A DNA stretch of 64,000 nt from Patescibacteria group bacterium (lineage in GTDB: Bacteria > Patescibacteriota > Microgenomatia > Daviesbacterales > UBA10151). The notes beneath the pieces are model-generated. The model did no database searches and had not been told where the DNA came from. It saw only the letters and a list, made by a program, of their open reading frames with translations. How positions within the stretch are numbered: position 1 is the stretch's first letter; the number at the start of each line of letters is the position of its first letter. This document shows, piece by piece, positions 2,125 through 21,125 of this stretch. The stretch covers positions 32,103 through 96,102 of the forward strand of contig CALRFD010000005.1 in assembly GCA_943356485.1 (NCBI GenBank). The letters run 5' to 3'. The position numbers and the translations under genes are program-made.

Positions 2125-2154
2125 TTGACATTTATAAGGCAAAAAACTTATTAT
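2125..2154 (+). promoter_or_regulatory. Candidate sigma70-like promoter for the carbamoyltransferase gene (-35 TTGACA, -10 TATTAT)
   Basis: TTGACA sits at 2125-2130 and TATTAT at 2149-2154, separated by an 18-bp spacer, in the 64-bp divergent gap upstream of the start at 2170. Chance matches are frequent in AT-rich DNA. Confidence 0.3.
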
Positions 2155-2169
2155 ACCTGTAAATAATTT

Positions 2170-3873
2170 ATGGGAAAAAATATGGTAACAATTTTAGGAA
2201 TTCATGACGGACATAATGCAGGAGCAGCCTTAATTCAAGACGGCAAAGTCCTGGCAGCTATTTCTGAAGAAAGATTAAATAATATTAAAAATTATTCAGG
2301 AGTTCCAGAGCTTGCCATGAGAAAGGTTTTTGAAATCTCTGGAGTTAAGACTTCAGAGGTAGATTCAGTTGCAATTGCCAGTTTCTTAAGGTTGGATGAT
2401 CCGGTGAAAGTTGATGGAAATAAGCTGCATTTCCTGGCAGAAAATATTTCTCCTCTAATACATAACAAAACGTTTATAAAATATAGTGTTTCCTTTTTGC
2501 ATAAGTTTAGAAAGATAAAAGGGATAGTAGATGTTTTAGATGAAATTGGCATAAATAATAAGAAGGTTAAATTTGTTGAACACCATTTAGCTCATGCAGC
2601 GTGTGCTTATTATCAGAGACCCTGGGATGATAAAACCTTAATTTTAACCCTGGATGGCATGGGAGATGGACTATCTGCTACTGTTAGCATAGGATCAAAT
2701 TTTAGCATTAAAAGAATTGCTGAGACTTCCTTTTACGATAGTATAGGTAATAATTTATATTCTGAAGTTACAGCATATCTAGGGATGAAGCGATGGGAAC
2801 ATGAATATAAGATAATGGGATTAGCTCCTTATGGAAAATATGATCAGGTAATTGAAGATTTGAGAAAAGTTATAAGAATAAATCCTCAAAAACCAATGGA
2901 ATTTGAAAATATCTCAGGGTATTACCTTAAAAAGATGCAAATTTATTATCAAAAGGTTTTAGCCGGACAGCGGTTTGATAATATTGCCGCTGCTACGCAG
3001 AAACTTTTTGAAGAATTAGTTATTTTATGGGTAAAAAATGCAATTAGAGAAACTAAACTGCATAAATTAGTATGTGCCGGGGGATCATTTCTTAACGTAA
3101 AATTAAATAAATTAATCAGAGAACTTGATGAAGTTGAAGATGTGTTTTTTTATCCGGCCTCAGAAGATGGAGGGTCACCGGTAGGAGCGGCCATGGAAGA
3201 ATATTATAGATTTTGCCAAGCAAATAAAATTTCTCCTAAAAAGGCAATTGTTTCTGATGTATATTACGGTCAATCATTTACAGATTCAGAGATAGCTGAT
3301 TTTATTAGGTCTAATAAATTAAGTACTCGAGCAAGGAAGGTCTCACCTGCAGAAATTGCTAAACTATTAAGTCAGGGAAAGATAATAGCACGATTCTCGG
3401 GAAGAGATGAATGGGGTCCAAGAGCTTTAGGAAATAGAAGTATTATGGCTGATCCCAGGAGTATGAATGTAATCAGAAAAATTAATTTCGCTATAAAGCA
3501 ACGTGATTTTTGGATGCCCTTTGCTCCGGCAGTACTGGAAGAGGATCAAAACAGATATTTTAAGAAAAGCAGATTTGCTCCTTATATGATTGAAGCTTTT
3601 GATGCAAAAGATGATGCGGCGAAAGAAATTATTGCCGGATTGCACCCCTATGATCTAACTGGCAGACCACAGATAGTCAATAACTGGAATCCTGGTTGGG
3701 AAGCAATAATCAAAGAATTTAAAAGATTAACAGGGGTAGGGAGTATACTCAACACATCTTTTAATCTTCACGGTTATCCTTTAGTCGGTAGTTTAAAATC
3801 AGCTCTTTCTACATTTAAAGATAGTGATTTAGATGGGTTATTGCTTGGGGAATGGTTAATTTTGAAAAAATGA
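2170..3873 (+). CDS. Carbamoyltransferase (NodU/CmcH family)
   Basis: The N-terminus VTILGIHDGHNAGAALIQDGKVLAAISEERLNNIK is the hallmark of the Kae1/YgjD-like carbamoyltransferase N-domain. The 567-aa length is typical, and WMPFAP and a C-terminal domain are present. Confidence 0.85.
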   Translation: MGKNMVTILGIHDGHNAGAALIQDGKVLAAISEERLNNIKNYSGVPELAMRKVFEISGVKTSEVDSVAIASFLRLDDPVKVDGNKLHFLAENISPLIHNKTFIKYSVSFLHKFRKIKGIVDVLDEIGINNKKVKFVEHHLAHAACAYYQRPWDDKTLILTLDGMGDGLSATVSIGSNFSIKRIAETSFYDSIGNNLYSEVTAYLGMKRWEHEYKIMGLAPYGKYDQVIEDLRKVIRINPQKPMEFENISGYYLKKMQIYYQKVLAGQRFDNIAAATQKLFEELVILWVKNAIRETKLHKLVCAGGSFLNVKLNKLIRELDEVEDVFFYPASEDGGSPVGAAMEEYYRFCQANKISPKKAIVSDVYYGQSFTDSEIADFIRSNKLSTRARKVSPAEIAKLLSQGKIIARFSGRDEWGPRALGNRSIMADPRSMNVIRKINFAIKQRDFWMPFAPAVLEEDQNRYFKKSRFAPYMIEAFDAKDDAAKEIIAGLHPYDLTGRPQIVNNWNPGWEAIIKEFKRLTGVGSILNTSFNLHGYPLVGSLKSALSTFKDSDLDGLLLGEWLILKK

Positions 3874-3920
3874 TCTACGATTTACCTGTAGATTAAAGTT
3901 CTCTTAAAAAAATAATTAAA

Positions 3921-5528
3921 ATGCAAACTAATAAAAACAGCAATTTTAAATTTTATTTTATATCCTTTATTGCAATTTTATTAGTATCTTTTGTCGTTTT
4001 GCTTCCTTCCTTTAGATTAGCTTTTCAAGATGATGATTGGCGTGGGGTAGTACTTCCTAAAACCGATTATGCAAACGGAAGACTAATGACACCATATGGA
4101 ATTCAATTGTGGTTCTGTGGAGTTTTATATGATTTTTTTGATTCTAATTTTTATCTTTACTATATCCTATCATTTATATTAAGAAATTTAACAGCTTTAG
4201 GCATTTTGATATTCCTTTATACTATTACGAAAAACCGTTTAGCTTCTTTTTTAGGCGGCTTAATGGTAGCTGTAGGATTTAGCGGCTTACAAACTACATT
4301 TGAGACAGCAAGTACAAATGTTTATTTTGCACTGATTGGATATACTGTCTTTTTAACATCATTTTTCAAAACAAAAGACAGATTAATATTAAAACATCTG
4401 ATTATAATGGATATCTCTTTGGCCTTAGCTACTTTAGCCTCACCTGTTAGAAGCTATCCTTTGTATGCTTGGGCATTTATAGTGGATGGAATTTATTTGC
4501 TGATGCGATTTAAAAGAGAAAGAGTTAAAAATTTTTTAGTCAGGCAATCTATAATTTTAATGAGCTTTTTAATCCTTTATAAAGCAGGTATTTTTAACTG
4601 GTTTAGTTTAGATGCACCTGCTACAAATCATATTAATGATTTTGGTATTTTTATTTCGAAGGGGAAGCTTTTTCTTGAAGGTTTAGATTTTAATATCGTA
4701 CTAAATTTTATAAGAGGTTTGGGAAATATTGTTATTCCTAGTATCTGGGATAAAAGTGGGGTGATGGCAATATTTGTAGGCAGTAGCTACATAGTTCTTT
4801 TGATAGCTCTTTTGTTTTTTATATTTAAAAAAAGAGATGAAAAAATATTTTATATATTCACTTTTTTGTTTTGGCCACCTCTTCTGTATTTTTGTTATTT
4901 TGTAGTGATATTAAGCGGCTATGAAAATCTTTCTAAGGGTACGGTTGTATTGGAATCATTTCGACGTTATTTGCTTCCTCCGTTCATCGGTTTTGTTGTT
5001 TTCTTAGCAATACTTTTATCCTTGGAAAAAACTAATAAGAGGAAGCATATTTTAATAGGGTTCATTCTGCTTTTTATATTCATGCACTCATTTGCTACCT
5101 ATAGCTTTCTTAGTGAGTTGTCAAAAAGAAGAGATGGTTTTTTTATGGTGAATATATGGAAACAACTTGTAAAACTAATGCCATATTCTAGTTTAGATAT
5201 TAATAAAACAAATATATTTTATTTTGAAACTGATGGGTCAGCTAGGGCAATCTATACTTTGGACGATGGGTTTATCTTGCATGCTACAACTTTATATAAG
5301 ATTTACCCCGGGTCAATGAGTACCCCGGATGAAATTGATTCTTTTACGAAAGTATTAAGGCATACATTTTCTTTTAGTGAATTTATCTCTTTTGTCACAA
5401 AGGGTTTTCCAAATGATTCTGGACCTATTCCCTGGAAAAGGGTTTTTGCTTTCAGGGTAGAGGGTGAAAGAGTGATAAATATTAAGGAGGAAGTTAGAAA
5501 AAGATTAGAAAAAAGTTTAATTCAATAA
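3921..5528 (+). CDS. Polytopic membrane protein, function unknown (possible glycan-related GT-C-like enzyme)
   Basis: It has about 10 or more hydrophobic segments. An acidic QDDDW motif follows the first TM helix. It is co-oriented with the carbamoyltransferase gene and the following PMT-like gene. Confidence 0.45.
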   Translation: MQTNKNSNFKFYFISFIAILLVSFVVLLPSFRLAFQDDDWRGVVLPKTDYANGRLMTPYGIQLWFCGVLYDFFDSNFYLYYILSFILRNLTALGILIFLYTITKNRLASFLGGLMVAVGFSGLQTTFETASTNVYFALIGYTVFLTSFFKTKDRLILKHLIIMDISLALATLASPVRSYPLYAWAFIVDGIYLLMRFKRERVKNFLVRQSIILMSFLILYKAGIFNWFSLDAPATNHINDFGIFISKGKLFLEGLDFNIVLNFIRGLGNIVIPSIWDKSGVMAIFVGSSYIVLLIALLFFIFKKRDEKIFYIFTFLFWPPLLYFCYFVVILSGYENLSKGTVVLESFRRYLLPPFIGFVVFLAILLSLEKTNKRKHILIGFILLFIFMHSFATYSFLSELSKRRDGFFMVNIWKQLVKLMPYSSLDINKTNIFYFETDGSARAIYTLDDGFILHATTLYKIYPGSMSTPDEIDSFTKVLRHTFSFSEFISFVTKGFPNDSGPIPWKRVFAFRVEGERVINIKEEVRKRLEKSLIQ

Positions 5529-5531
5529 TCA

Positions 5532-7004
5532 ATGATGGAAAAATTAAAAGAAAATTGGTTCATTATAGTTATAATATTGTTGATTTTTTTTACCCGTTCT
5601 CTTTTGTTTAATAAAGATGCTGCCTTCTTTTGGGCTGATGAACGCCACTTTCAACAAATGATTATAAAACTTCAGGAGTCAAAAGAAAAAAATGACTTTA
5701 TGATTGCGGTAAATACAATTTTTCACTTAAACGCCCGCCCAGGACTCGGATTATTTTATTTTCCATCAGCAATTCTTCAATGGGAAAATCCTGATATTCC
5801 TTTTGGTTCTTATTTTAATATCTTCATTAATTCTTCAGTACTACTGTTAATTTATTTAATTGTAAAAAAAACTTACGGATTTAGATCAGCAATTTTATCT
5901 CTTTCTTTTGTGTTATTTTCTTCATCCACTGCTATTTATTTAAGACATTTATTGCCATATGATGCGTCGTTATTTACTTTACTACTAGGATTATTAATTT
6001 ATGTGTATACACAAAAAGCATTCAGATTTGGATTATTGGCAGGGTTGTCTTTTCTTACTTATGCCAGTTATTATTATATATTGCCAATTCCATTAGTTCT
6101 CTTTTTGTATCATAAATCCTTGAAGCCAGCTATATTTTTCTTACTGGGGACTGCAGCAACTCTTATCTTTGCAAATTTTATGTATATTTACTTTGACCAC
6201 TCATCCTACTTTCAATCTGTTAAAGCGGAGTCCGCAGGTGTAACTTCTGTTCACATAGGGGATTATGTATCGGCATTTTCTTATATAAGTCAGTATATTT
6301 TTACCATTGATGGAGTTTGGCATACATTTTTAATTTTTACCTCTTTAATCTTATTAATTTTTCAGTGGAAAGAAAAAAAGCTTAATATTTTGGGTACTTA
6401 TTTATTATTAACTTTTCTAATTATGGAAATTACATCCCATGTTCTAAAAATGCACGTGCTATATGGAAGGACTGTAAGGCCTTTTTATTTATCAGCATTA
6501 GTCATTTCCGGAATCATTTTTCATAGAGTATTTGCGCGAGTATCTAAAGGGAGTAAAGTAATCTATTTTCGGTATTTCTTCTTAATAATATTTGTTACAT
6601 TTTTAATTTGGTTACCAAATTTTTTAACGTTTAAAAATCTTATTTACCCGGAGCAATTTAAGAAATTGGCTAAGCAGTATTTAGTAACAAAATATAATAA
6701 TCCCTCAAATGTAGAGGAAGTCTTGTTTGTAAATTATTTCGGTGTAGGTAGCCCTCCAAAAATGAATGTCTTTAAGGAATATAAAGGTTCAAAACAAAAG
6801 ACGTTTTATATAGTTAATGCTAACGTTATTTATCCTTACTATGGCAGTTATGATATGAATTTATTTTGCAAAAATGAAATTTTACTTAAGGAGCTGCATA
6901 TACAGTCTAAATTTAAACCATACCTGTTTGAGGGATGGGGAGAAGCTATGAGAGGGCAAGCAGATAAGGATCCCCTTTATTATCAATTAATATACTGTAA
7001 ATAG
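5532..7004 (+). CDS. Polytopic membrane protein, probable PMT/ArnT-like GT-C glycosyltransferase
   Basis: Multiple TM helices are present. FFWADERHF after TM1 resembles the FDEvHF loop-1 motif of the GT39/PMT family. Confidence 0.45.
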   Translation: MMEKLKENWFIIVIILLIFFTRSLLFNKDAAFFWADERHFQQMIIKLQESKEKNDFMIAVNTIFHLNARPGLGLFYFPSAILQWENPDIPFGSYFNIFINSSVLLLIYLIVKKTYGFRSAILSLSFVLFSSSTAIYLRHLLPYDASLFTLLLGLLIYVYTQKAFRFGLLAGLSFLTYASYYYILPIPLVLFLYHKSLKPAIFFLLGTAATLIFANFMYIYFDHSSYFQSVKAESAGVTSVHIGDYVSAFSYISQYIFTIDGVWHTFLIFTSLILLIFQWKEKKLNILGTYLLLTFLIMEITSHVLKMHVLYGRTVRPFYLSALVISGIIFHRVFARVSKGSKVIYFRYFFLIIFVTFLIWLPNFLTFKNLIYPEQFKKLAKQYLVTKYNNPSNVEEVLFVNYFGVGSPPKMNVFKEYKGSKQKTFYIVNANVIYPYYGSYDMNLFCKNEILLKELHIQSKFKPYLFEGWGEAMRGQADKDPLYYQLIYCK

Positions 7005-7095
7005 TCTAAAAATGGACACGAATTTAGATAGTTCTCTTATATAGGAGTAAGCGATATAATCAAACCACAAAATTAAGCTTTAAGAAAACTATAAA

Positions 7096-8211
7096 ATGAT
7101 TAACTTAACCAATATTTATCTTGATAAAAAAATAGCAACTGAAGTACAAAAAGTTCTATTGTCCAAATCATTAGTGCAAGGAGAAAAAGTAAGAGAGTTA
7201 GAAGCAGAGATGAGTAAAGTTAACGAGACAAGGTACGCTGTGGTGGTTAATTCAGGGACTGCAGCTTTGCATACAGCTTTAGTAGCAATTGGCTTAAGAG
7301 AAGGAGATGAAGTTATTACAACACCATTTTCTTTTATCGCCACAGTAAATACTATCTTAATGTGCAAAGCAAAACCGGTTTTTATTGATGTAAATAAGGA
7401 AACTTTTACGATAGATCCTGATTTAATAGAGGATAGGATATCTAAAAAAACAAAGGCGATAGTAACAGTTGATTTATATGGACAGACCTGTGACTACAAA
7501 AAAATAAGTAAAATCGCCAAAAAATATAACCTTAAAATTATAAGTGATTCTTGTCAGGCAATTGGAGCTATGTATAAAAGTAAGCCAATAGCTAAATGGG
7601 TTGATATTGCTTGTTTCTCTTTTTATGCTACAAAAAATATCATGATGGGAGAAGGTGGAGCTTTGGTGACAAATAACAGAAAAGTTTTTGAATTCGCAAA
7701 GCGATTTAGGCAACATGGTCAGGATATGGAAAAGCCGTATTTTTACCATCACTTAGGATATAACTATAGATCGACAGATATTTTAGCTGTAATTGGACTC
7801 TCACAAATAAAATTTTTAAAAAAATGGACAAAACAAAGATATGATAATGCATGTAAATTAATAAAGGGTTTGAAAGGAATTCCAGGGATAATTACCCCTA
7901 ATTTAAGGGTTGAAGGGGAACATGTATTTCATCAATTTACTATTCGTATAACTAAGGATTATCCCTTGCTAAGAGATCAATTGCGTTCCTATCTTTTTGA
8001 TCACGGGGTTAGATCAGGCGTATATTATCCTTGCGTTTTAGCAGAATACCCTTTTATAAAAGAGATAATTCCTTATAACAAGGATATGTATCCGGTTGCT
8101 GAAGAACTTTCTTCTCAGGTATTGTCTCTTCCCGTTCATCCAATGCTTAAAAACTCAGAGATTAAAAAGATAGTATCCTTGATTAAAAAAGGGGCAAATG
8201 AAAAAAATTAG
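7096..8211 (+). CDS. DegT/DnrJ/EryC1/StrS-family PLP-dependent sugar aminotransferase (WbpE-like)
   Basis: It has DLYGQ, SFYATKN (the Lys region) and GEGGALVTNN motifs. It is followed by a Gfo/Idh/MocA oxidoreductase and an acetyltransferase. Confidence 0.85.
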   Translation: MINLTNIYLDKKIATEVQKVLLSKSLVQGEKVRELEAEMSKVNETRYAVVVNSGTAALHTALVAIGLREGDEVITTPFSFIATVNTILMCKAKPVFIDVNKETFTIDPDLIEDRISKKTKAIVTVDLYGQTCDYKKISKIAKKYNLKIISDSCQAIGAMYKSKPIAKWVDIACFSFYATKNIMMGEGGALVTNNRKVFEFAKRFRQHGQDMEKPYFYHHLGYNYRSTDILAVIGLSQIKFLKKWTKQRYDNACKLIKGLKGIPGIITPNLRVEGEHVFHQFTIRITKDYPLLRDQLRSYLFDHGVRSGVYYPCVLAEYPFIKEIIPYNKDMYPVAEELSSQVLSLPVHPMLKNSEIKKIVSLIKKGANEKN

Positions 8212-9142
8212 AGTAGGTGTAATAGGGGTTGGTAATATGGGAAGAAATCATGTCAGGGTTTACTCTAAAATTGCTAATTTAGTGGCAGTTTCTGATATAG
8301 ATGAAGAATTGGGTAAAGAGATTGCAAAAAAGTTTAATTTAAACTTTTATAAAAATTATAAGCAAATGATAGAACAAGAGAAGCTTGAAGCAGTCTCCGT
8401 GGTAGCCCCCACGTTTTTACATAAAAGTATTGTACTGTATTGTTTAAGTAAAAGCCTTCCTACTTTGGTTGAGAAACCAATAGCTATTAATATTTTGCAG
8501 GCGAAGGAAATAATGGAATGTGCAAAAAAGTATGCTACTCTTTTAATGGTTGGGCATGTGGAGAGATTTAATCCGGTAATTATCAAACTGAAAAAGATTA
8601 TAGATGAGGGTCGTTTAGGAAAAATTATTAGTCTTGTTGCTATCCGTGTTGGTATTAATCCCCCTAATCCTGCTGCATCAGACGTAGCTTTGGATTTGGG
8701 GATTCATGATGTAGATGTTTTTAATTATCTACTCGGAAAATTTCCAAAAAAGAAAAAGGTTATTAAAACAAAATTATTTTCTAAGAATACTGCGGATTCA
8801 TCTATTTTATTGTTAGAGTATGGTGAAGCAACAGGTATAATTCAAACAAATTGGATTACTCCGGTAAAATTAAGAAAATTGTTTGTAAGCGGAACCGAAG
8901 GGTATGTTGAGCTAGATTATATTCAGCAGAAATTAGTCTTACATGATAAAATTCTCAATATAAAGTTTAACGGATCTTTTTATGAGCTTTTATCCATTTC
9001 TGATCAAGCGCCAAGAAAAGAAGTTTATATTTCAAAAAAAGAACCCTTGAAAGAAGAACTACTTTATTTTTTGTCTAATATAAAAAATAGGGAATCAAAT
9101 AATATTGTTGATTCTATCGAGGCGCTCAAGGTCGTAAGTTAA
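8198..9142 (+). CDS. Gfo/Idh/MocA-family NAD(P)-dependent oxidoreductase (WbpB-like sugar 3-dehydrogenase)
   Basis: The N-terminus has the Rossmann motif IRVGVIGVGNMGRNH. The length (314 aa) is typical. It overlaps the upstream aminotransferase gene by 14 bp. Confidence 0.8.
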   Translation: MKKIRVGVIGVGNMGRNHVRVYSKIANLVAVSDIDEELGKEIAKKFNLNFYKNYKQMIEQEKLEAVSVVAPTFLHKSIVLYCLSKSLPTLVEKPIAINILQAKEIMECAKKYATLLMVGHVERFNPVIIKLKKIIDEGRLGKIISLVAIRVGINPPNPAASDVALDLGIHDVDVFNYLLGKFPKKKKVIKTKLFSKNTADSSILLLEYGEATGIIQTNWITPVKLRKLFVSGTEGYVELDYIQQKLVLHDKILNIKFNGSFYELLSISDQAPRKEVYISKKEPLKEELLYFLSNIKNRESNNIVDSIEALKVVS

Positions 9143-9143
9143 C

Positions 9144-9665
9144 ATGAAAAAAGTAAATATTCATAAAACAGCAGAAATAGGTAAAAATACAATAATTGGA
9201 GAGAATACTCGAATTTGGCATTTTGTACAAATACGGGAAAATGTAAAAATTGGTTCTAATTGTATTATAGGTAAAAACGTATATATCGATTTTGAAATAG
9301 AAATTGGAAATAACTGTAAGATTCAAAATAATTGTTCAATTTACCATAAAACAATTGTTGAGGATGGTGTTTTTATCGGACCTCATGTAATTATCACAAA
9401 TGACAAAAATCCCCGCGCAATAGATCAAAAAGGCAAGATAAAATCGGCAAACGATTGGAACGCAGGAAAGGTAACTGTACGTTTTGGCGCATCTATTGGA
9501 GCAGGGAGTATTATTCTGCCCAATATCACTATCGGAAAATTTGCGATGATAGGTGCCGGTTCAGTTGTATCTCATGATGTAGCGGACTTTGCTCTTGTTT
9601 ATGGAAATCCGGCTAAGCTGCATGGAAGAGTTGATGAAAGCGGTTCTATTATTGAACGGTTTTAA
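9144..9665 (+). CDS. Hexapeptide-repeat N-acetyltransferase (WbpD/WlbB/PglD-like)
   Basis: Left-handed beta-helix repeats are visible (IGENTRIWHFVQIRENVKIGSNCIIGKNVYI...). It starts 1 bp after the oxidoreductase stop and its size (173 aa) is typical of WbpD-type enzymes. Confidence 0.75.
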   Translation: MKKVNIHKTAEIGKNTIIGENTRIWHFVQIRENVKIGSNCIIGKNVYIDFEIEIGNNCKIQNNCSIYHKTIVEDGVFIGPHVIITNDKNPRAIDQKGKIKSANDWNAGKVTVRFGASIGAGSIILPNITIGKFAMIGAGSVVSHDVADFALVYGNPAKLHGRVDESGSIIERF

Positions 9666-9666
9666 T

Positions 9667-10608: not shown

Positions 10609-10625
10609 GTTATAGAGTAAATAAA

Positions 10626-12927: not shown

Positions 12928-12962
12928 GCTACTCTAGTATCAGTATTTGGCATTATACAACA

Positions 12963-14000: not shown

Positions 14001-14010
14001 TCAACCAGTT

Positions 14011-14910
14011 ATGACAACAACTTCTTCAAAGATTGTTTTTACTGGTATAACTGGGTTGTTAGGTGGTTATTTTTTAAAAACAAAAAAATCTGGTTACGGA
14101 ATTATTGGCATAGGTAATAAGAATATTTCCCAGAATAATGATAATTTTTTCCAAATAGATATAACAAACAAAAAACAAGTTCTAGATTTTATTAATAAGA
14201 TTAATCCCTCGGTGATTATCCATGCGGCCTCAATTGGAAATGTGGATTATTGTGAAAGAAACCCTGATGAGGCATACAAGGTAAATATAGAAGGAACAAA
14301 AAATATTATAAACGCAGCAAAAAAAGCTAGAGCTAAGATTATTTTTTTATCTTCAAATGCAGTTTTTGATGGAAATAATCCTCTCTACGATGAAAAAGCG
14401 CTTTCTAGTCCGATTGATATATACGGTAAGACAAAGAAGGAGGGGGAGAGTTTAATAAAAATGAGCGGACTTAATTTTGTCATACTTCGTTTAATGACTA
14501 TGTATGGCTGGCCACAAGCAGGAGGGAGAGGCAACCCGGTAACTTGGATTATTGATAAGCTAAAAACAGGCGAGAAGATAAACGTTGTAAGTGATATTTA
14601 TAATAATCATTTATGGGCAGGACAGGCAGCAGAGGTTATTTGGGAAATTTTAAAAAAGGATATAAAAAATGAGACCTACAATATTGCCGGAATGGATTGT
14701 ATAAGCAGGTATGATTTGGCCTTGAAGGTTGCAAAAATTTTTGAACTTGACCCATCTTTAATAACTCCTGTTACCAGCGACTTTTTTAAAAGCATTGCAA
14801 AAAGACCAAAGAACACCTGCTTTAATGTTTCAAAAATGGAAACGCAGTTAGGAATAAAAGCAGTAAGCATTGATGAAGGCTTAGCCCTTATGAGAGAGGA
14901 ATCAAAATAA
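14011..14910 (+). CDS. RmlD-like sugar-nucleotide reductase / SDR (dTDP-4-dehydrorhamnose reductase family)
   Basis: The N-terminus IVFTGITGLLGG, the IIHAAS...D motif, FLSSNAVFDG and the ~300-aa size fit the RmlD substrate-binding-domain family. Confidence 0.65.
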   Translation: MTTTSSKIVFTGITGLLGGYFLKTKKSGYGIIGIGNKNISQNNDNFFQIDITNKKQVLDFINKINPSVIIHAASIGNVDYCERNPDEAYKVNIEGTKNIINAAKKARAKIIFLSSNAVFDGNNPLYDEKALSSPIDIYGKTKKEGESLIKMSGLNFVILRLMTMYGWPQAGGRGNPVTWIIDKLKTGEKINVVSDIYNNHLWAGQAAEVIWEILKKDIKNETYNIAGMDCISRYDLALKVAKIFELDPSLITPVTSDFFKSIAKRPKNTCFNVSKMETQLGIKAVSIDEGLALMREESK

Positions 14911-14960
14911 CTGAGCATTATTCTGGTTGATGAAATTTTGATTTAAGTGATAACTGAAAA

Positions 14961-15734
14961 TTAAGATTTAAAATTTTTCTCAAAATATTCTACGTCTTTG
15001 GGAGTGCCTAAGCCCCAGACTTTAGGAGTAATGGCTGCGACTATCTTCATACCTTTGTTAATTAGTCTTTGGTAAATCGGGGCAACATAAAACTCTTTCT
15101 TTCCTTCATCCCCGGTTAAATCATTTTCAAATATAGCTTCTTCTACTTCTTTAACAAAAACATTTCCATGAGTAAAATAATAACCACCAATATTAGCCAA
15201 AGCCCCTTTTTCTGCCAACTCTTTATCTTTTTCTCCAACTGCGGAAATTATTCCATCTTTTCCAACCAGTGAAAAACTCCATTTAGGATCTTTGTCCGGA
15301 GGTATGAAAACAGGAATAATCCCTTGAGTTTGCGGATCTTTGTTTAAAATTTTGTCATACAAAAAACTGCCGTCAAAATAATGATCAGAATCAGATATCA
15401 ACATATCTTCATCAGAATTGATATATTCTTTTGCCTTCAAAACAGTTTCCGCAGCGCCTTTCGTTATTTGATCAATAAATATTACTTTAATTTGATTGCT
15501 AAACAACTCTTTTAAAGACTGTGATATTTTAAATTCATCTTCCTGATCCTGGCGGCAGATAAAAATAAGGTCACTTGGATTTATCTTAAATTTAGCTAAG
15601 GAATCAATTGCCCAAACAATCATTGGTTTACCTTTAATATTAATCAGTGGTTTAGGTTTTTTATATTCAGGGTTAGAATCCTGGGCATCTAAAAATCTTG
15701 ATCCTCTTCCTGCCATTGGTATAACTATCTTCAT
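14961..15734 (-). CDS. Sugar-/polyol-phosphate nucleotidyltransferase-like protein (GT-A-like NTP-transferase fold), paralog 1
   Basis: The N-terminus is MKIVIPMAGRGSRF...KPL..I.GKPMI and the C-terminus carries GLGTPKDVEYF (a GTPEDL-like motif). It is a paralog of the adjacent gene. Confidence 0.55.
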   Translation of the reverse strand: MKIVIPMAGRGSRFLDAQDSNPEYKKPKPLINIKGKPMIVWAIDSLAKFKINPSDLIFICRQDQEDEFKISQSLKELFSNQIKVIFIDQITKGAAETVLKAKEYINSDEDMLISDSDHYFDGSFLYDKILNKDPQTQGIIPVFIPPDKDPKWSFSLVGKDGIISAVGEKDKELAEKGALANIGGYYFTHGNVFVKEVEEAIFENDLTGDEGKKEFYVAPIYQRLINKGMKIVAAITPKVWGLGTPKDVEYFEKNFKS

Positions 15735-16480
15735 TTTTTACCCTTCTCTGCAAGATTTAAATACCTGTTTAAATCCTCAGGTGTTCCAAGTCCGTGCATT
15801 TGCGATTGTTTAATCTCCCAATTTATTACTTGCCCGCCGGATAATATCATTTCGTTAAAAACCGGGCAAACGTAAAAATCATTATTAAATCTAATATTTT
15901 TTTCAATCAAGGAAAAAGCCGCTTTAACAAATGAAGAGCCTTTTTTAAAATAATAAATTCCAACTGTAGCCTGATCTGAAATAACCTTCTTTTCGGCAAC
16001 TTCATAGACAACTCCATTTTTTCCAACCCTGGCATAACTCCAACGGGGATGATGTGAGTTAAAGGTCATAATAACTCCATCAGCCTTTGATTCCCTGGCA
16101 AATTTAATAAAATGATCGATATCAACATCGATTACCTGATCGGCATTAGCAATAATTAATTCTTCATCATTATTAATGTAGTCAACAGCATTTAATACAC
16201 TGCAGACTGCACCCTGGGTTGTGCCAAATAAGGGGATGGAGATATAGTTGCCTTTGGTGGAATTATTAAAAATCTGATGAAGTGAAAATTTATCATACTG
16301 TTCCTTTTTAGAGATCAGGATAAATTTATGCTCTGTCTTCGGGGTTAGATTTTCTATGACCAGTTGAATCATCGGTTTGCCGTTTATGTCAATTAAAGGT
16401 TTAGGGAAAGTGTATCCGGCCTGGATAAAACTTGTACCGCTTCCTGACATTGGTATAACAATATTTAGATTATTTTTCAT
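15731..16480 (-). CDS. Sugar-/polyol-phosphate nucleotidyltransferase-like protein, paralog 2
   Basis: It has NIVIPMSGSGTSF...KPLIDINGKPMI and a C-terminal GLGTPEDLNRY. It overlaps paralog 1 by 4 bp. Confidence 0.55.
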   Translation of the reverse strand: MKNNLNIVIPMSGSGTSFIQAGYTFPKPLIDINGKPMIQLVIENLTPKTEHKFILISKKEQYDKFSLHQIFNNSTKGNYISIPLFGTTQGAVCSVLNAVDYINNDEELIIANADQVIDVDIDHFIKFARESKADGVIMTFNSHHPRWSYARVGKNGVVYEVAEKKVISDQATVGIYYFKKGSSFVKAAFSLIEKNIRFNNDFYVCPVFNEMILSGGQVINWEIKQSQMHGLGTPEDLNRYLNLAEKGKK

Positions 16481-16483
16481 TTT

Positions 16484-17131
16484 TTAAATTAAGTTTAAAT
16501 CCAAGAACAGTGAAAGGTTTACATCCTCAAATCCTGCAACGGCAATAACTTTAGCCCCGCTTCTTTTTGCAGCTTCTATTCCATGTAGGGCGTCTTCAAC
16601 AATAATAGCTTCACCCGGGTTAATCTTGAGCTTTTTAAAGGCTGCTAGATATATATCCGGTTGAGGTTTAGGTTTATATCCCTCGTCATTTCCTAGAATA
16701 AAATCAAAAAAGTGGCTAATCCCAGCTCCATTTAGCATGTTTAAAACAGAATATTTTTGGGCATTACTACAGCAGGCTAATTTGTACCCTTTATTTTTTA
16801 AAGTTGTGAGCATAATTTGTTTTTCATGGGTAGGGGTGCAAAGTTGTCTTACCCTTTCATCAGTATATTTTCTTTTTAATACTCTTACAATCTCATGTAA
16901 ACCAGTAGGAAGGCCTTTGCGCTCTGATAAAAGTTTAAGTTTTTCATGGGTGGGTAATCCGTTGTAGGTGCTTAAATGTTCTTCCATACCTATCTCATAA
17001 CCGAAGACTTTTAGAGCATCATTTAAAGCTTCGAAGTGCCACTGTGTTGCATCAATTAATACTCCGTCTAAATCAAAAATAATTGCCTTGATCATACCTT
17101 TTGTATAGTATACTATATCTACTTTTTTCAA
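16484..17131 (-). CDS. HAD-superfamily hydrolase (subfamily IA, beta-phosphoglucomutase/phosphatase-like)
   Basis: It has motif I IIFDLDGVLID and a C-terminal GxxDxxxG-like region (IIVEDALHGIEAAKRSGA). The start may instead be the internal Met at 17095 (MIKAIIFDL), which would leave a 39-bp divergent gap. Confidence 0.7.
   Translation of the reverse strand: MKKVDIVYYTKGMIKAIIFDLDGVLIDATQWHFEALNDALKVFGYEIGMEEHLSTYNGLPTHEKLKLLSERKGLPTGLHEIVRVLKRKYTDERVRQLCTPTHEKQIMLTTLKNKGYKLACCSNAQKYSVLNMLNGAGISHFFDFILGNDEGYKPKPQPDIYLAAFKKLKINPGEAIIVEDALHGIEAAKRSGAKVIAVAGFEDVNLSLFLDLNLI
17104..17117. promoter_or_regulatory. Perfect 14-bp palindrome TATAGTATACTATA in a divergent promoter gap (candidate operator)
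   Basis: The palindrome is read directly: 17104-17117 is self-complementary. It lies between the divergent HAD gene (-) and the methyltransferase gene (+), whose downstream genes run co-directionally through 44223. Confidence 0.3.
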
Positions 17132-17134
17132 GAT

Positions 17135-18070
17135 ATGAAATTATCAAACAGCGAATCTGCAATTGCGAAATTTTACTCGGAATATCCATTTCCTAACGTT
17201 GCTATCTACAAAAAGCAGGATCTTTATAAAACTTTAATATATGAGCTTATATATGGGCTAAGCAAAAAATATTTAGACAAGTATAAAAATAAAAAGATAA
17301 AAATATTGGACGCAGGATGTGGCACAGGAGAGTTAAGTTTAGGCTTGGCGGATGGAAGAAGAGATATCCTAGGTGTAGATATTAACAAAAAATCACTTAA
17401 GATAGCTAAGAGCAGAGCCTTGAAATTTAAGATTACCAGTGTAAAATTTAGTGAATTTGATTTTGCCAAAGCAGATTTACCTAAAGATCACTATGATTTT
17501 ATTTTTTCTATAGGAGTACTGCACCATACTGAGAAGCCGGAAAAGAATTTTAGCCGCTTAGTCGAAGCCCTAAAAATTGGAGGCTATATTACAATTGGCA
17601 TCTACAATCCGTTTGGTTCACTAAAGGTAAGACTAAAAAGAGGGATATTAAAAATATTAGCAGGTGATAATTTTGAAAAGAAAATTGAAATCTATAGGAG
17701 GCTGTTTTACCGAAGAGAGTTAAGTATTTCTGAGAAAGTAGCAGTGGCAGATGCTTTTGCTAATCCATACAGGAGATATTATACTTTTGAACAGCTTCTA
17801 AAATGGTTTGAAAGAAATAATATTCAGTTTTTAGACAGCGCTCCTTCTATTGAGCTATCTAAAAATATTAAATTAATAAAGGTAATCTTTAAAAATATTC
17901 TGGCGGGTAAGAAAGTAAGTTTGATGTCAATCTGGCAGGATATAGTTTACAAACATGAACCAGTTAAAAAATGGGAAATTTCAAAACCAGTATCTTTCCT
18001 TACCCAACTTTCCTGGTCTGTTATTGGCAGAGGGGAATTAATTAATATGATTGGCAGGAAAATGAAATGA
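17135..18070 (+). CDS. Class I SAM-dependent methyltransferase
   Basis: It carries motif I ILDAGCGTGELSLGLA and the post-I acidic residue pattern. It is 311 aa. Confidence 0.75.
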   Translation: MKLSNSESAIAKFYSEYPFPNVAIYKKQDLYKTLIYELIYGLSKKYLDKYKNKKIKILDAGCGTGELSLGLADGRRDILGVDINKKSLKIAKSRALKFKITSVKFSEFDFAKADLPKDHYDFIFSIGVLHHTEKPEKNFSRLVEALKIGGYITIGIYNPFGSLKVRLKRGILKILAGDNFEKKIEIYRRLFYRRELSISEKVAVADAFANPYRRYYTFEQLLKWFERNNIQFLDSAPSIELSKNIKLIKVIFKNILAGKKVSLMSIWQDIVYKHEPVKKWEISKPVSFLTQLSWSVIGRGELINMIGRKMK

Positions 18071-19380
18071 TACTGGATCTTTCCTTAAAGAGAAAAATAG
18101 AAGAGGCGCAGTACTATAGTAGTCCAATAAATCAACTATACCATCCTACAGCTTTGTTTGGCGTAGAGTCAAAGGAGATAGTTTACTCCTGGGGAAATTT
18201 AAATCTGACTAAATTTATCCCAATCTTACTTAAAGAGTGGTTTTATTTAATAAAAAAAGACGAATTTTTGGTGATAGATTATATCCCAAATGACATTTGT
18301 AATAGTCAGAAATTAGAAGAATATATGGAGTTTTTATGGAAAGGCAAATATAAGATCATCTATCATGATTTTATTGATGATTATGAATTTAAAAATTTGA
18401 ATGCCGAAAAAATTAAAAACTTCATTTATAAAAAAGAACGTAATGTAAAAAAAGATAAATATTTAAGGTTTATCTGTCAAAAGATTATCTCTTTAAAAAT
18501 TCCAAATGATGAGATTACAAAATGGACTTTTGGAATAATTACTAACGGTAAAAGGGATCATTGGGTGGATAAAATTATTGACTCTATAAAAAAGCAAAAG
18601 ATTCCAAGTTATGAAATTATTGTTTGTGGAAACTATGAAGGAAAAAACGGAATAATCCATATTCCGTTTAATATAAATGATGATAAAGGATGGATCACCC
18701 GGAAGAAAAATTTAATCGTAAAAAGAGCAAAGTTTGAAAATATCTGTATGCTTCATGACAGAATAGTTTTAGGTCTTAATTGGTATAAGGGTATGAAAAA
18801 ATGGGGTAATTGTTTCGAGAATTTAGGCTGTAAACAATTATATGAAGGTATTAGAGTTAATGATTGGATAGCTTCACACTATTTTATCAGGAATAAAAAT
18901 AATGAGAAATTTTCTTTTGAATCTTACCTTGATTATAAAGACTGGTATCCTCAAGTGTGGTTTTTAGGACAATTAAATATCTTTAAAAGAAGTGAAATTG
19001 CCAAAAATAATCTTTGGTGGAATGAAAATCTTTTTTATGGACAGAGAGAAGACTTTGATTTTTCTTTAAAACTATACCAAAAAGGTTTTATACCAAGGCT
19101 TAATATTTTCTCAGAAGTTGAAACATTAACTAATAAATATGTAAATCCTACATTCATTAGTTATAGTTTAACATCCCTTAATCCTAAGATGAAGCTTAAC
19201 AATAAAAATGCTTACTTAAAAGCAGCCACTTACCTGTTATTAAAAATATTGGGTTTGATCGGAATAAGGTTATCTTTTAGCGCACTGGAAAATATCAGAG
19301 GTAAAATATATACTTTTATTCTAATGTTTACCCCAATCAAGTATTCCCACAATAGGGAATGGAAAAAGGTTATAAAATGA
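18067..19380 (+). CDS. Hypothetical protein; C-terminal half possibly a GT-A-like glycosyltransferase domain
   Basis: I recognise no hallmark motif. YEIIVCGNYEG and QREDFDFSLKL are reminiscent of GT-A DxD/acidic motifs. The C-terminus is hydrophobic. It overlaps both neighbours. Confidence 0.35.
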   Translation: MILDLSLKRKIEEAQYYSSPINQLYHPTALFGVESKEIVYSWGNLNLTKFIPILLKEWFYLIKKDEFLVIDYIPNDICNSQKLEEYMEFLWKGKYKIIYHDFIDDYEFKNLNAEKIKNFIYKKERNVKKDKYLRFICQKIISLKIPNDEITKWTFGIITNGKRDHWVDKIIDSIKKQKIPSYEIIVCGNYEGKNGIIHIPFNINDDKGWITRKKNLIVKRAKFENICMLHDRIVLGLNWYKGMKKWGNCFENLGCKQLYEGIRVNDWIASHYFIRNKNNEKFSFESYLDYKDWYPQVWFLGQLNIFKRSEIAKNNLWWNENLFYGQREDFDFSLKLYQKGFIPRLNIFSEVETLTNKYVNPTFISYSLTSLNPKMKLNNKNAYLKAATYLLLKILGLIGIRLSFSALENIRGKIYTFILMFTPIKYSHNREWKKVIK

Positions 19381-21125
19381 TTACTATTGGTTTTTATAAG
19401 GGACATAATGCCACAGCCTGTATTTTGAAGGACGGTAAAATATTAGCTGCTGTTTCTGAAGAGAGATTTAATAGAATTAAGAATGCAGACGTTTTTCCAA
19501 AAGAGGCAATTAACTATTGCTTAAATAAAGCAGGGATAAATGGTAAAGATGTAGATTTATTTGTTAGAATTTACGAGCATCCGGAAGGGTATATTAGCCC
19601 AACAGGAGAGGCTAAAAGCCCAAAATTAGTAGAACTAGTCCTTTTTCCTCTACCCTACTTAAAGAAATTTATTTTTCAATTCCCCCCAGTAGGTTTTTTC
19701 CTTAAAGAGACATATGCTTTTTTTTCAGCTAAAATACTTGCCCCCTTTTATCAAAAAATATTTAAGGAAAATATGGCCAGATTTTTAAATATCAGCAAAG
19801 ATAAAATAATTTTTGCTAACCATCATCTGTGTCACGGCTATGCAGCGTATTTTGGTTTTCTGTCTGAGAGTGAAAGGAAAAAGGATCAGCTTGTCATTAC
19901 TTTAGATGGTGAGGGTGACAATATTTGCGGTACTGTTTGGACAGTGACAGATGGTAAGTGGAAAAAAATTGCCGAAACATCAGGAGGAAATTCTATAGCA
20001 ACTTTTTATGGTTTAATTACCCATTTTTTAGGTATGAAAATGAATGAGCATGAGTATAAGGTAATGGGACTGGCGCCTTACGTCTCTTTGGTAGAAATGG
20101 ATAAGATCTATCCTTTTTTTAAAGATTTGTTTTGGGTTGATGATAATCTTTCTATTCATTCAAAATATCCATCAGGTTCTTATCTATACTACTTTGATAA
20201 AGTCCTAATACATCAGAGATTTGATGGTATAGCTGCCGGCGCACAAGCATTGGCAGAAAATTTGGTGGTTGAATTAATTAGCAAGGCCATAAAGAAAACG
20301 GGGATTAAAAATATTGTGCTTTCCGGTGGCTTTTTTATGAATATTAAAGCCAATAAAAAAATCTCTGAGATAGAGGCTGTTGAAAGCCTGACGATTTGTC
20401 CCTCTTCCGGCGATGAATCTGCGCCTTTTGGGGGAGCCTACTTTGGTTTTGAGAGTTTAGGCGGTAAGAGCTTTCAGGGAATTTCTGATTTATATTTGGG
20501 TCCAGATTACTCGGATGAGGATATTGAAAAAGCGATCAAAGAAGACCCCTCAGTTAAAAAATACAGCATAAAAAAAATTGCTGATATAGAAAAAAAAGTT
20601 GCAACTTTATTAGCTGAAGGAAAAATAGTCGGTCGTTTTAAAGGCAGGATGGAGTGGGGAGCAAGAGCGTTGGGGGATAGATCAATCCTGATGGATCCAA
20701 GCAGAGTTGATTTAAAGCAAGAGTTGAATGAACAAGTAAAATCAAGGGATTTTTGGATGCCTTTTGCGGCAACTATTTTGGATGAATGTCAAAAAGAGTA
20801 CATTATTAATCCTAAAAATATTAAAGCTTTTTATATGGCAATAGGGTTTGATACAACTCCAAAGGGTAAAAAAGAGTTGGCTGCCGCAGTGCACCCCTAT
20901 GATTTTAGCTGCCGCCCTCAAATATTAAGAAAAGAAGATAATCCTGATTATTATAAATTGATTAAGTATTTTAAATCACTGACAGGAATAGGAGCATTGC
21001 TTAATACTTCATTTAATTATCATGGGGAGCCGGTCGTTTGCAGTCCGCAAGATGCTCTGCGTACGTTTGAGGTTACCAACCTAAAGTATTTGGCAATAGG
21101 AAACTATTTAATGTCCAAAAAATGA
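19377..21125 (+). CDS. Carbamoyltransferase (NodU/CmcH family), second copy
   Basis: MITIGFYKGHNATACILKDGKILAAVSEERFNRIKN matches the carbamoyltransferase N-terminus. I placed the start at ATG 19377, an ATGA overlap with the upstream stop at 19378-19380, rather than at 19359. Confidence 0.85.
   Translation: MITIGFYKGHNATACILKDGKILAAVSEERFNRIKNADVFPKEAINYCLNKAGINGKDVDLFVRIYEHPEGYISPTGEAKSPKLVELVLFPLPYLKKFIFQFPPVGFFLKETYAFFSAKILAPFYQKIFKENMARFLNISKDKIIFANHHLCHGYAAYFGFLSESERKKDQLVITLDGEGDNICGTVWTVTDGKWKKIAETSGGNSIATFYGLITHFLGMKMNEHEYKVMGLAPYVSLVEMDKIYPFFKDLFWVDDNLSIHSKYPSGSYLYYFDKVLIHQRFDGIAAGAQALAENLVVELISKAIKKTGIKNIVLSGGFFMNIKANKKISEIEAVESLTICPSSGDESAPFGGAYFGFESLGGKSFQGISDLYLGPDYSDEDIEKAIKEDPSVKKYSIKKIADIEKKVATLLAEGKIVGRFKGRMEWGARALGDRSILMDPSRVDLKQELNEQVKSRDFWMPFAATILDECQKEYIINPKNIKAFYMAIGFDTTPKGKKELAAAVHPYDFSCRPQILRKEDNPDYYKLIKYFKSLTGIGALLNTSFNYHGEPVVCSPQDALRTFEVTNLKYLAIGNYLMSKK

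Follow-up and report, generated by a model that had tools for sequence, protein, structure and literature searches.

Two class III carbamoyltransferases within a large surface-glycan gene cluster of a Daviesbacteria-like Patescibacteria genome

The Patescibacteria (CPR) are uncultivated episymbionts whose surface chemistry is, to our knowledge, essentially unknown; we know of no CPR glycan that has been analysed. The stretch of DNA considered here, hereafter the window (64,000 nucleotides), derives from a Daviesbacteria-like member of this group and belongs to a surface-sugar gene cluster spanning at least 74 kb. The window encodes 11 GT-C-like membrane proteins, over 20 further glycosyltransferases and single copies of a Wzx, a Wzy-like protein and an initiating transferase:

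39249..40538 (+), Wzx-type flippase
56056..57474 (+), Wzy_C / O-antigen-ligase-like polytopic protein
63237..63866 (+), initiating polyprenyl-phosphate sugar-phosphate transferase (Bac_transf)

Both carbamoyltransferases described below lie inside this glycan supercluster, in agreement with an earlier note on this DNA that had placed them in an envelope-glycan locus. That note had also directed all of the predicted decorations to one polymer, which is not demonstrable with such a complement of glycosyltransferases beside a single flippase, polymerase-like protein and initiating enzyme. CT1 and CT2, as we call the two enzymes, belong to distinct transcription units that are separated by about 15 kb and by minus-strand genes. 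A search of the approximately 74 kb of window and flanks for genes supplying carbamoyl phosphate (OTC, carbamate kinase, CarAB) gave none.

2125..2154 (+), candidate sigma-70-like promoter (TTGACA-18-TATTAT) in the 64-nt gap 5' of CT1
2170..3873 (+), CT1, predicted class III O-carbamoyltransferase, likely start 2182 (Pfam, PDB, AF2, residue mapping)
19359..21125 (+), CT2, class III carbamoyltransferase and paralogue of CT1, likely start 19377 (Pfam, residue mapping)

Pfam and PDB-sequence matches confirm that CT1 (2170/2182-3873) and CT2 (19359/19377-21125) are full-length class III (NodU/CmcH/TobZ-type) carbamoyltransferases. Each is a single chain of about 570 aa, free of hydrophobic segments, in which an N-terminal Kae1/TsaD-like domain (PF02543, Carbam_trans_N; 4.5e-45 in CT1, 4.5e-35 in CT2) precedes a C-terminal YrdC-like domain (PF16861, Carbam_trans_C; 1.1e-54 and 1.4e-58), and the two share 37% identity from end to end. 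Gene callers place the start of CT1 at 2182, for a product of 563 aa, and that of CT2 at 19359; for the latter, a start at 19377 is no worse, as it shares an ATGA with the stop codon of the preceding gene, follows an AAGG by 7-8 nt and yields a beginning (MITIGFY) that matches the MVTILGIH of CT1 in pattern. The N-terminal motif previously quoted for both proteins is exact in CT1 (LGIHDGHNA...ISEERLNNIK) but only approximate in CT2 (IGFYKGHNA...VSEERFNRIK). The promoter candidate, the top-scoring site (11/12) in the first 20 kb, is only suggestive because the total number of sites is no higher than in shuffled sequences.

The active-site residues of the family are retained in both proteins. 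In GdmN, iron is bound by H133/H137/D156/D333 and H27 serves as the base (PMC9633730). The four metal ligands, two His and two Asp, correspond to H138/H142/D162/D333 in CT1 and H155/H159/D183/D352 in CT2 and are at least 97% invariant among 385 family sequences, and the catalytic His (CT1 H15, CT2 H16; GdmN H27, TobZ H14) is invariant in 44/44 sequences. The YrdC-domain residues probed in TobZ are likewise in place: K443, M473 and S530 of CT1 align without gaps to K443, M473 and S530 of TobZ, for which CT2 has K461, M493 and S551, and the YrdC-domain motifs GRxExGxRALGxRS and NTSFN that mark family membership are present. CT1 matches VtdB, GdmN, NovN and TobZ over its full length (2e-52 to 7e-45), whereas CT2 aligns end to end with VtdB and with the other solved members over the C-terminal two-thirds. 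The AF2 model of CT1 (pLDDT 92.8) superposes on GdmN, TobZ, NovN and VtdB with TM 0.84-0.85.

CT1 is surrounded by a split transketolase, a GT2, a methyltransferase and a diacetamido-sugar pathway:

1359..2105 (-), class I SAM methyltransferase, oriented divergently to CT1
3921..7004 (+), pair of polytopic membrane proteins of 535 and 490 aa with 6-7 hydrophobic segments, immediately 3' of CT1
7096..9665 (+), WbpE-like aminotransferase, WbpB-like UDP-GlcNAc 3-dehydrogenase and WbpD/NeuD-like N-acetyltransferase (9144-9665)

The two membrane proteins gave no family match, and homologues of them occur near CT1 orthologues in four related loci (L001, L002, L083 and L086). At 7096-9665, a GFO/IDH/MocA 3-dehydrogenase, a DegT aminotransferase and a left-handed beta-helix N-acetyltransferase adjoin one another, which on sequence identifies a WbpB/WbpE/WbpD-like pathway to a diacetamido nucleotide-sugar. 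The exact sugar is uncertain because the specific NCBIfam equivalogs score below their cut-offs (archaeal UDP-GlcNAc 3-dehydrogenase model 3e-84, NeuD/PglB/VioB 3e-28).

The surroundings of CT2 comprise a methyltransferase, a GT-A enzyme, a GT2, a GT-C and a GT1:

17135..18070 (+), methyltransferase that opens the CT2 operon, 86% conserved in L086
18067..19380 (+), predicted GT-A-fold glycosyltransferase of a CPR-restricted family, translationally coupled to CT2
21122..25511 (+), GT2 (357 aa), AftD-like GT-C (713 aa) and GT1/GT4 (393 aa), with 4-nt start/stop overlaps

The identity of the 18067 product came only from structure prediction, which assigns it the GT-A fold; searches of Pfam and of PDB sequences returned no match for it, nor did the PDB search for the GT-C at 22192. 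Its family co-occurs with CT2 homologues on at least 10 contigs. Loci L086 and L087 keep the order CT2-GT2-GT-C-GT1, and L088 and L089 keep its CT2-GT2 pair. Two 157-nt intergenic gaps (26416 and 36414), compared for a common element, are not homologous.

Further candidate decorating enzymes are encoded downstream:

26573..28810 (+), GT2 carrying two fused methyltransferase domains in tandem
41349..42020 (+), methyltransferase
46144..46689 (+), hexapeptide acetyltransferase, probably an O-acetyltransferase by sequence (best match the WcaF family, score under the family cut-off)
54896..55510 (+), hexapeptide acetyltransferase (best match the WcaF family)

Five methyltransferase domains (1359, 17135, 41349 and two in 26573) had been claimed, and Pfam-type matches bear all of them out; the tandem pair share 47% identity and each matches Methyltransf_11/25. 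The three hexapeptide acyltransferases (9144, 46144, 54896) are equally real, although the first was miscast as a polymer decorator and is rather the N-acetyltransferase of the nucleotide-sugar set described above. The carbamoyltransferase, methyltransferase and acyltransferase calls are all strong domain matches in long ORFs, and chance is excluded.

Carbamoyltransferases of this kind had been described as rare outside Nod factors and antibiotic biosynthesis, a view that does not survive a count: at E<=1e-30 the family comprises 4,863 clusters at 50% identity, with matches on 472 plasmids and in 148 phages, up to four matching places in one cyanophage record, and further members in rfb-linked loci of Leptospira. 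Among 88 homologue loci from bacteria and archaea, 72 have a glycan-type gene within 10 kb, the commonest neighbours being GT4 enzymes (47 loci, adjacent in 25) and NAD-dependent epimerase/dehydratases (31), with some co-location expected by chance because the glycosyltransferase probes used represent families common in genomes. The contexts of the CPR orthologues are all glycan loci. CT1 and CT2 are retained together on the contigs of relatives, and the whole block is syntenic in L086. Each has its own orthologues at 60-87% identity, which, together with the 37% identity between them, rules out a recent duplication within the locus; by these comparisons CT1 and CT2 are assigned to different, anciently diverged subfamilies. 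A more distant CT2 homologue, in another Daviesbacteria genome (L090), adjoins a GDP-heptose pathway. In two loci, L087 and L068 (one Woesebacteria, one DPANN), the homologue has a bona fide ornithine carbamoyltransferase as its neighbour, which hints at a local supply of carbamoyl phosphate there and is consistent with real use of this substrate. The carbamoyltransferase-fold neighbour in L073, in contrast, is a PyrB among housekeeping genes (enolase, RsmE) and is discounted as coincidence. We found nothing specific in the literature on carbamoyltransferases or carbamoylated glycans in CPR.

Taken together, we consider it probable that CT1 and CT2 are active cytoplasmic class III carbamoyltransferases that modify sugars of envelope glycans, probably two different sugars or positions. 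By analogy with TobZ and GdmN, the C-terminal YrdC-like domain would condense carbamoyl phosphate and ATP to carbamoyl-AMP. From the context, the acceptors would be sugar residues in intermediates of envelope-glycan synthesis, whether nucleotide-sugars or polyprenyl-linked oligosaccharides, and the carbamoyl group would presumably be O-linked. Because ATP is needed, the reaction is expected on the cytoplasmic side, ahead of Wzx flipping. The gene context gives good support for a glycan target. As the two enzymes belong to different subfamilies and different operons, separate sugars or positions are their most likely targets.

Several other explanations compete with parts of this proposal. The two enzymes might serve different glycoconjugates, for example a Wzx/Wzy-type polysaccharide and a GT-C-built lipoglycan or protein glycan. 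Numerous GT-Cs and small GT2s are typical of multiple extracytoplasmic glycosylation systems, and the window has, besides its 11 GT-C-like proteins, several small GT2s sized like polyprenyl-phosphate sugar synthases; the separate transcription units and the low identity of CT1 to CT2 point the same way. The single Wzx, Wzy-like protein and initiating transferase and the synteny of the whole block in L086 argue for one system, and we regard the division as a real possibility that falls somewhat short of probable. Unlikely, in our estimation, is a more specific route in which CT2 modifies a polyprenyl-phosphate monosaccharide made by the GT2 at 21122, which is then flipped and transferred outside by the AftD-like GT-C at 22192. 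GT-C enzymes do take lipid-phosphate sugars as donors, and the overlapping CT2-GT2-GT-C-GT1 genes keep their order down to 59% carbamoyltransferase identity in Woesebacteria, with the CT2-GT2 pair more widely kept. However, this GT2 has its closest solved relatives among ordinary GT2 domains (chondroitin synthase, 2.6e-15; GalT1), with DPM synthase reaching only 4e-3, and we know of no carbamoylated lipid-linked monosaccharide donor on record.

The chemistry and the acceptor class also admit alternatives. One or both enzymes could N-carbamoylate an amino sugar to a ureido sugar, for which the 3-amino intermediate of the WbpB/WbpE pathway is a candidate acceptor: CT1 shares an operon with the aminotransferase/dehydrogenase set (7096-9142), and in L083 the gene immediately upstream of the CT1 orthologue encodes a DegT aminotransferase. 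Since every class III member of known structure recovered here is an O-carbamoyltransferase and a dedicated N-acetyltransferase (9144) is available for the amino group, we find this very improbable. The acceptors of the family range over sugars, macrolactams, beta-lactams, saxitoxin and 5hmC in DNA (PMC9633730, PMC8670742), the last being a target of some phage carbamoyltransferases (PMC8670742), so that substrate class is unpredictable from homology and a secondary metabolite, nucleic acid or protein might be the acceptor instead. Against this, no PKS, NRPS, aminoglycoside, DNA-hydroxymethylase or hydrogenase-maturation genes were found in the window or its 8+2 kb flanks, and glycan genes neighbour most of the 88 related loci. 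HypF proteins carry acylphosphatase and zinc-finger domains and place YrdC before Kae1, an architecture that rules out HypF-type protein carbamoylation here; the HypF model (TIGR00143) gives CT1 and CT2 only local matches of 29 and 28 bits against a cut-off of 466, which settles the concern that they might belong to that branch. A non-glycan acceptor is, in our view, very improbable.

The preferred reading, sugar modification of envelope glycans, can be extended, tentatively and with considerable doubt, to a broader one. Dedicated ancient class III subfamilies might underlie widespread O-carbamoylated surface glycans in CPR, DPANN and other archaea, Chloroflexota and Planctomycetota; metabolically reduced cells might draw carbamoyl phosphate from citrulline through the ornithine carbamoyltransferase of glycan operons; and the CT2-GT2-GT-C module might deliver a carbamoyl-sugar to the outer side of the membrane. 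The CT1/CT2 locus is itself an ordinary example of a gene type common in the sugar-coat clusters of many microbes. If confirmed on CPR glycans, carbamoyl, methyl and acetyl groups would be epitopes of interest for how these cells attach to hosts and are recognised by phages, and the CT2 module with its CPR-restricted GT-A partner would offer handles on the CPR surface. Carbamoyltransferase genes are routine in the glycan loci of many lineages, yet carbamoylated glycans are seldom reported; as the carbamoyl group is lost during alkaline work-up (PMC8005017), this suggests an analytical blind spot and not biological rarity.

With respect to known systems, CT1 and CT2 have the two-domain architecture, fold, metal ligands, His base and K443/M473/S530 equivalents in common with TobZ, VtdB, NovN and GdmN, whereas structure-aligned identity to the CT1 model is only 23-27%. 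Those enzymes tailor antibiotics in secondary-metabolite clusters, in contrast to the envelope-glycan setting of CT1 and CT2, and GdmN and NovN (682/687 aa) have a C-terminal dimerisation domain that CT1 and CT2 (567/588 aa) are without. TobZ, VtdB and NovN act on sugar hydroxyls, and the earlier note erred in grouping TobZ with enzymes of non-sugar substrates, as both TobZ and VtdB carbamoylate sugars. The cyanophage "Nol-like" and phage 5hmC carbamoyltransferases are of the same family at about 28% identity, in a phage context.

NodU and NolO (Nod-factor 6-O and 3-O, respectively) belong to the same Pfam family, have sugar acceptors and are accompanied in nod clusters by a methyltransferase and a GT2, as here. 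A Nod-factor-like system (methyltransferase, carbamoyltransferase and GT2 as NodS, NodU and NodC) was nevertheless rejected: the NodU equivalog NF041651 scores 122 (CT1) and 91 (CT2) bits, far under its cut-off of 1000, the GT2 is not NodC-like, and no NodA, NodB or NodC is encoded in the window. Pseudomonas WapO/PA5005 is a putative 7-O-carbamoyl transferase for the core heptose of LPS, with the carbamoyl group on the product chemically proven (PMC8005017), and is itself a precedent against the supposed rarity of such enzymes in envelope-glycan loci. WapO acts on the LPS inner core of a diderm, and no Kdo, heptosyltransferase or heptose-kinase genes of its type of context occur in the window. 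Like CT1 and CT2, it is the product of a carbamoyltransferase-family gene within an envelope-glycan cluster, and it is their nearest precedent by function.

Two class III (NodU/CmcH/TobZ-type) carbamoyltransferases, CT1 (2170-3873) and CT2 (19359-21125), are encoded in the window, each carrying both a Carbam_trans_N and a Carbam_trans_C domain (E 1e-35 to 1e-58) and aligning with the other from end to end at 37% identity. All elements listed by the earlier note were recovered at its coordinates, and its choice of start for CT2 (19377, where ATGA overlaps the upstream stop, AAGG lies nearby and the protein begins MITIGFY) is the probable one; for CT1 the probable start is that of the gene caller, 2182, from which the protein begins MVTILGIH. 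The N-terminal motif that had been quoted for both proteins is exact in CT1 and approximate in CT2. Both match the solved class III O-carbamoyltransferases VtdB (7xb6), GdmN, NovN and TobZ (E = 1e-44 to 1e-62), CT1 over its full length in every case and CT2 over its full length to VtdB and roughly its C-terminal two-thirds to the other three. An AlphaFold model of CT1 built with 44 homologs as input (pLDDT 92.8, pTM 0.92) superposes on these four structures with TM 0.84-0.85, and Kae1/TsaD structures match its N-terminal half only. In GdmN, the Kae1-like domain holds an iron site and a catalytic base, while carbamoyl-AMP formation is assigned to the YrdC-like domain (PMC9633730). The corresponding residues are as follows.

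Functional residues of CT1 and CT2 and their counterparts in characterised enzymes
Metal ligands: GdmN H133, H137, D156, D333; CT1 H138, H142, D162, D333; CT2 H155, H159, D183, D352
Catalytic base: GdmN H27 (TobZ H14); CT1 H15; CT2 H16
YrdC-domain residues: TobZ K443, M473, S530; CT1 K443, M473, S530; CT2 K461, M493, S551

The metal ligands are at least 97% invariant among 385 family sequences, the histidine base is invariant in an alignment of 44, and the three TobZ residues, which have been probed by deposited variants, lie in a gap-free alignment. Because the catalytic residues are kept in both, the modelled fold of CT1 matches and neither protein contains a hydrophobic segment, CT1 and CT2 are very probably active, cytoplasmic enzymes dependent on ATP and carbamoyl phosphate. 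Two other identities were ruled out: HypF, at 29 bits against a cut-off of 466, and NodU orthology, at 122 and 91 bits against a cut-off of 1000.

The paralogs represent separate subfamilies. A protein identical to CT1 is encoded on a metagenomic contig of 99 kb. Among the species-representative genomes searched, the nearest relative of CT1 (79% identical) is found in a Candidatus Daviesbacteria metagenome-assembled genome and the next in other Patescibacteria, and its clade retains 50-60% identity across CPR bacteria, Chloroflexota and archaea. Orthologs of CT2 (59-82% identical) also come from Patescibacteria, Woesebacteria included, and its clade is mostly confined to Patescibacteria. These relationships identify the organism as a CPR bacterium of Microgenomates/Daviesbacteria type. 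Both paralogs are kept together in relatives, as on contigs of 117,740 bp (proteins P0002 and P0122) and 45,022 bp (P0012 and P0124).

What these enzymes modify is a matter of context. Known acceptors in the family range from sugars (TobZ, VtdB, NovN, NodU) through macrolactams (GdmN) to 5-hydroxymethylcytosine in DNA (PMC8670742), and homology therefore cannot name the substrate of CT1 or CT2. No PKS/NRPS, DNA-modification or hydrogenase-maturation genes were found near either gene. Each of the nine ortholog or homolog contexts that came with precomputed Pfam annotation is a glycan locus, and a glycan-type gene lies within 10 kb in 72 of 88 homolog loci (Patescibacteria, Chloroflexota, Planctomycetota, Thermoproteota, Asgard and DPANN archaea, and others), most exceptions being short contigs. 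In unsupervised neighbour clustering, a GT4 gene is near the homolog in 47 loci and immediately adjoining in 25, a co-location partly expected by chance, as glycosyltransferase genes are common in genomes; the adjoining GT4 is on the homolog's strand in 21 of the 25, which argues for real association. NAD-dependent epimerase/dehydratases (31 loci, adjoining in 13), GT2 families and AsnB-like amidotransferases (17 loci) also recur. Given these neighbours, the acceptor of CT1 and CT2 is probably a glycan or sugar, and the glycan target proposed in the earlier note is plausible on this genomic footing. Carbamoylation would take place on a nucleotide-sugar or lipid-linked intermediate prior to flipping, since the reaction needs ATP.

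The surrounding DNA (G+C about 33%, nearly all coding, predominantly on the + strand) forms a single unbroken envelope-glycan supercluster, as judged by Pfam and NCBIfam scans of about 55 ORFs. These scans identified at least 13 GT2 and eight GT1/GT4 glycosyltransferases, and counts of hydrophobic segments identified 11 GT-C-like polytopic membrane proteins, six matching PMT_2 and three the AftD arabinofuranosyltransferase model. Nucleotide-sugar genes encode DegT aminotransferases, epimerase/dehydratases, an RmlD-like reductase, a UDP-ManNAc-dehydrogenase-like enzyme, two nucleotidyltransferases and a beta-phosphoglucomutase-like HAD protein, and decoration-type domains comprise five methyltransferases, three hexapeptide acyltransferases and the two carbamoyltransferases. 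Upstream, the cluster runs on for at least 8 kb (further GT2/GT4, two methyltransferases, a GDPD and a split transketolase); downstream it ends about 2 kb past the window, where a DUF4012 protein (629 aa) precedes recO (L091, the downstream flank, 5990-8550; about 7-2,567 bases beyond the window end). The cluster therefore spans at least 74 kb, a large investment for CPR bacteria, whose genomes are typically about 1 Mb.

Several features of its membrane proteins were noted in passing. The three AftD matches fall among four big GT-C-like proteins (22192-24333, 28800-32285, 32647-36075 and 36571-39252), of which those at 28800 and 32647 are tandem paralogs (37% identical), each trailed by a small protein (32282 and 36084; 109-118 aa, 2-3 hydrophobic segments) that is without family match and could be a GtrA-like flippase. 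Two PMT_2-like proteins (42712-44223 and 46686-48215) are 67% identical, pointing to a recent in-locus duplication; near each lies a small GT2 whose length (232-240 aa) matches that of polyprenyl-phosphate sugar synthases.

The earlier note had placed all marks on one polymer, a view that the gene content does not support, as it points both ways. A single backbone is favoured by the presence of one copy each of three assembly genes:

39249, Wzx flippase
56056, Wzy_C/ligase-like protein
63237, initiating Bac_transf phosphoglycosyltransferase

Several products or branches are favoured by the many GT-C systems and the separate operons. Nor do all the listed enzymes fit as decorators. The hexapeptide protein at 9144 best matches NeuD/PglB/VioB-type N-acetyltransferases and lies directly 3' of a 3-dehydrogenase and an aminotransferase, and on these grounds is assigned to synthesis of a 2,3-diacetamido sugar precursor rather than polymer decoration. 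For those at 46144 and 54896 the best match, below cut-off, is to polysaccharide O-acetyltransferases of the WcaF family. The methyltransferases belong to the generic class I type; the 26573-28810 protein joins a GT2 domain to two tandem methyltransferase domains (47% identical mutually), an architecture that seems similar to the chain-modifying GT-methyltransferase fusions in pathways for S-layer and O-antigen glycans.

CT1 heads a transcription unit, preceded at 2125-2154 by the sigma-70-like candidate site that scores best in the first 20 kb and followed by two polytopic membrane proteins (3921-5528 and 5532-7004), to which no Pfam or NCBIfam model matches even at E=1, and then by the WbpE/WbpB/WbpD-like trio. 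Homologs of the two polytopic proteins were also found close to CT1 orthologs in related CPR contigs. Companions of CT1 in its closest relatives include a split transketolase, a GT2 (310-317 aa), an epimerase and methyltransferases. The transketolase (ThDP-binding and pyrimidine-binding subunits) lies just 5' of CT1 (window 5-406 with 7003-8225 of L081, the upstream flank) and adjoins CT1 orthologs in loci L001/L083, L002, L003/L084 and L004, an arrangement that hints at a two-carbon-branched or extended sugar as part of the same pathway.

CT2 is translationally coupled to the gene at 18067-19380, whose 437-aa product has no Pfam or PDB sequence match and belongs to a family of 155 proteins restricted to CPR bacteria; its AF2 model (pLDDT 93) has the fold of a GT-A glycosyltransferase plus an additional domain at the N-terminus. 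This family shares a contig with CT2 homologs in at least 10 cases (contigs paired by equal bp), and also in L086 and L090. The order CT2-GT2-GT-C(AftD-like)-GT1, with 4-nt overlaps, is kept in L086 and in Woesebacteria locus L087, and the CT2-GT2 pair also in L088 and L089. From such conservation, the sugar on which this module works may be the one that CT2 modifies; one speculative option is a lipid-phosphate sugar that the GT-C protein would use afterwards. In another Daviesbacteria genome (L090:2618-6477), a 46%-identical CT2 homolog adjoins what looks like a complete GDP-heptose pathway (SIS isomerase, GHMP kinase, HAD phosphatase, nucleotidyltransferase), echoing the carbamoyl-heptose of the Pseudomonas LPS core.

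Two homolog loci bear on the carbamoyl donor. In L087, an in-operon ORF (16267-17217) directly 3' of the GT1 scores 424 bits to an ornithine carbamoyltransferase (OTC) model (cut-off 306), and in L068 (Aenigmatarchaeota, DPANN) an OTC (5051-6007; 335 bits, passing the NCBIfam cut-off) overlaps the stop of the carbamoyltransferase homolog. A third candidate, in L073, was rejected as a PyrB among housekeeping genes. In its phosphorolytic direction, OTC converts citrulline to carbamoyl phosphate, and in metabolically reduced CPR and DPANN cells it could feed the class III enzyme locally. On the basis of two loci of about 90, operon-linked OTC may thus be a supplier; the window and the retrieved flanks of its contig contain no OTC-type gene.

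The rarity claimed for such carbamoyltransferases fails at the gene level, as family members fall into 4,863 clusters (50% identity) at E<=1e-30 and 10,833 at 1e-10, are found on 472 plasmids and in 148 phage genomes (with up to 4 matching places per cyanophage record) and have envelope precedent. A more far-reaching reading, in which surface glycans of CPR bacteria, DPANN and other archaea commonly bear O-carbamoyl groups that have escaped notice, with citrulline as the source of the donor, is rather improbable. CT1 and CT2 are new, uncharacterised members of an already known kind of system; mildly new are their occurrence in CPR bacteria, the way in which two subfamilies stay paired, the conserved CT2 module and its CPR-specific GT-A partner, and the OTC encoded in an occasional operon. 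Carbamoyltransferase genes have been noted in rfb-linked loci of Leptospira, and the chemistry-backed precedent is WapO/PA5005 of Pseudomonas, an envelope-cluster carbamoyltransferase putatively responsible for 7-O-carbamoyl on core heptose II (PMC8005017).
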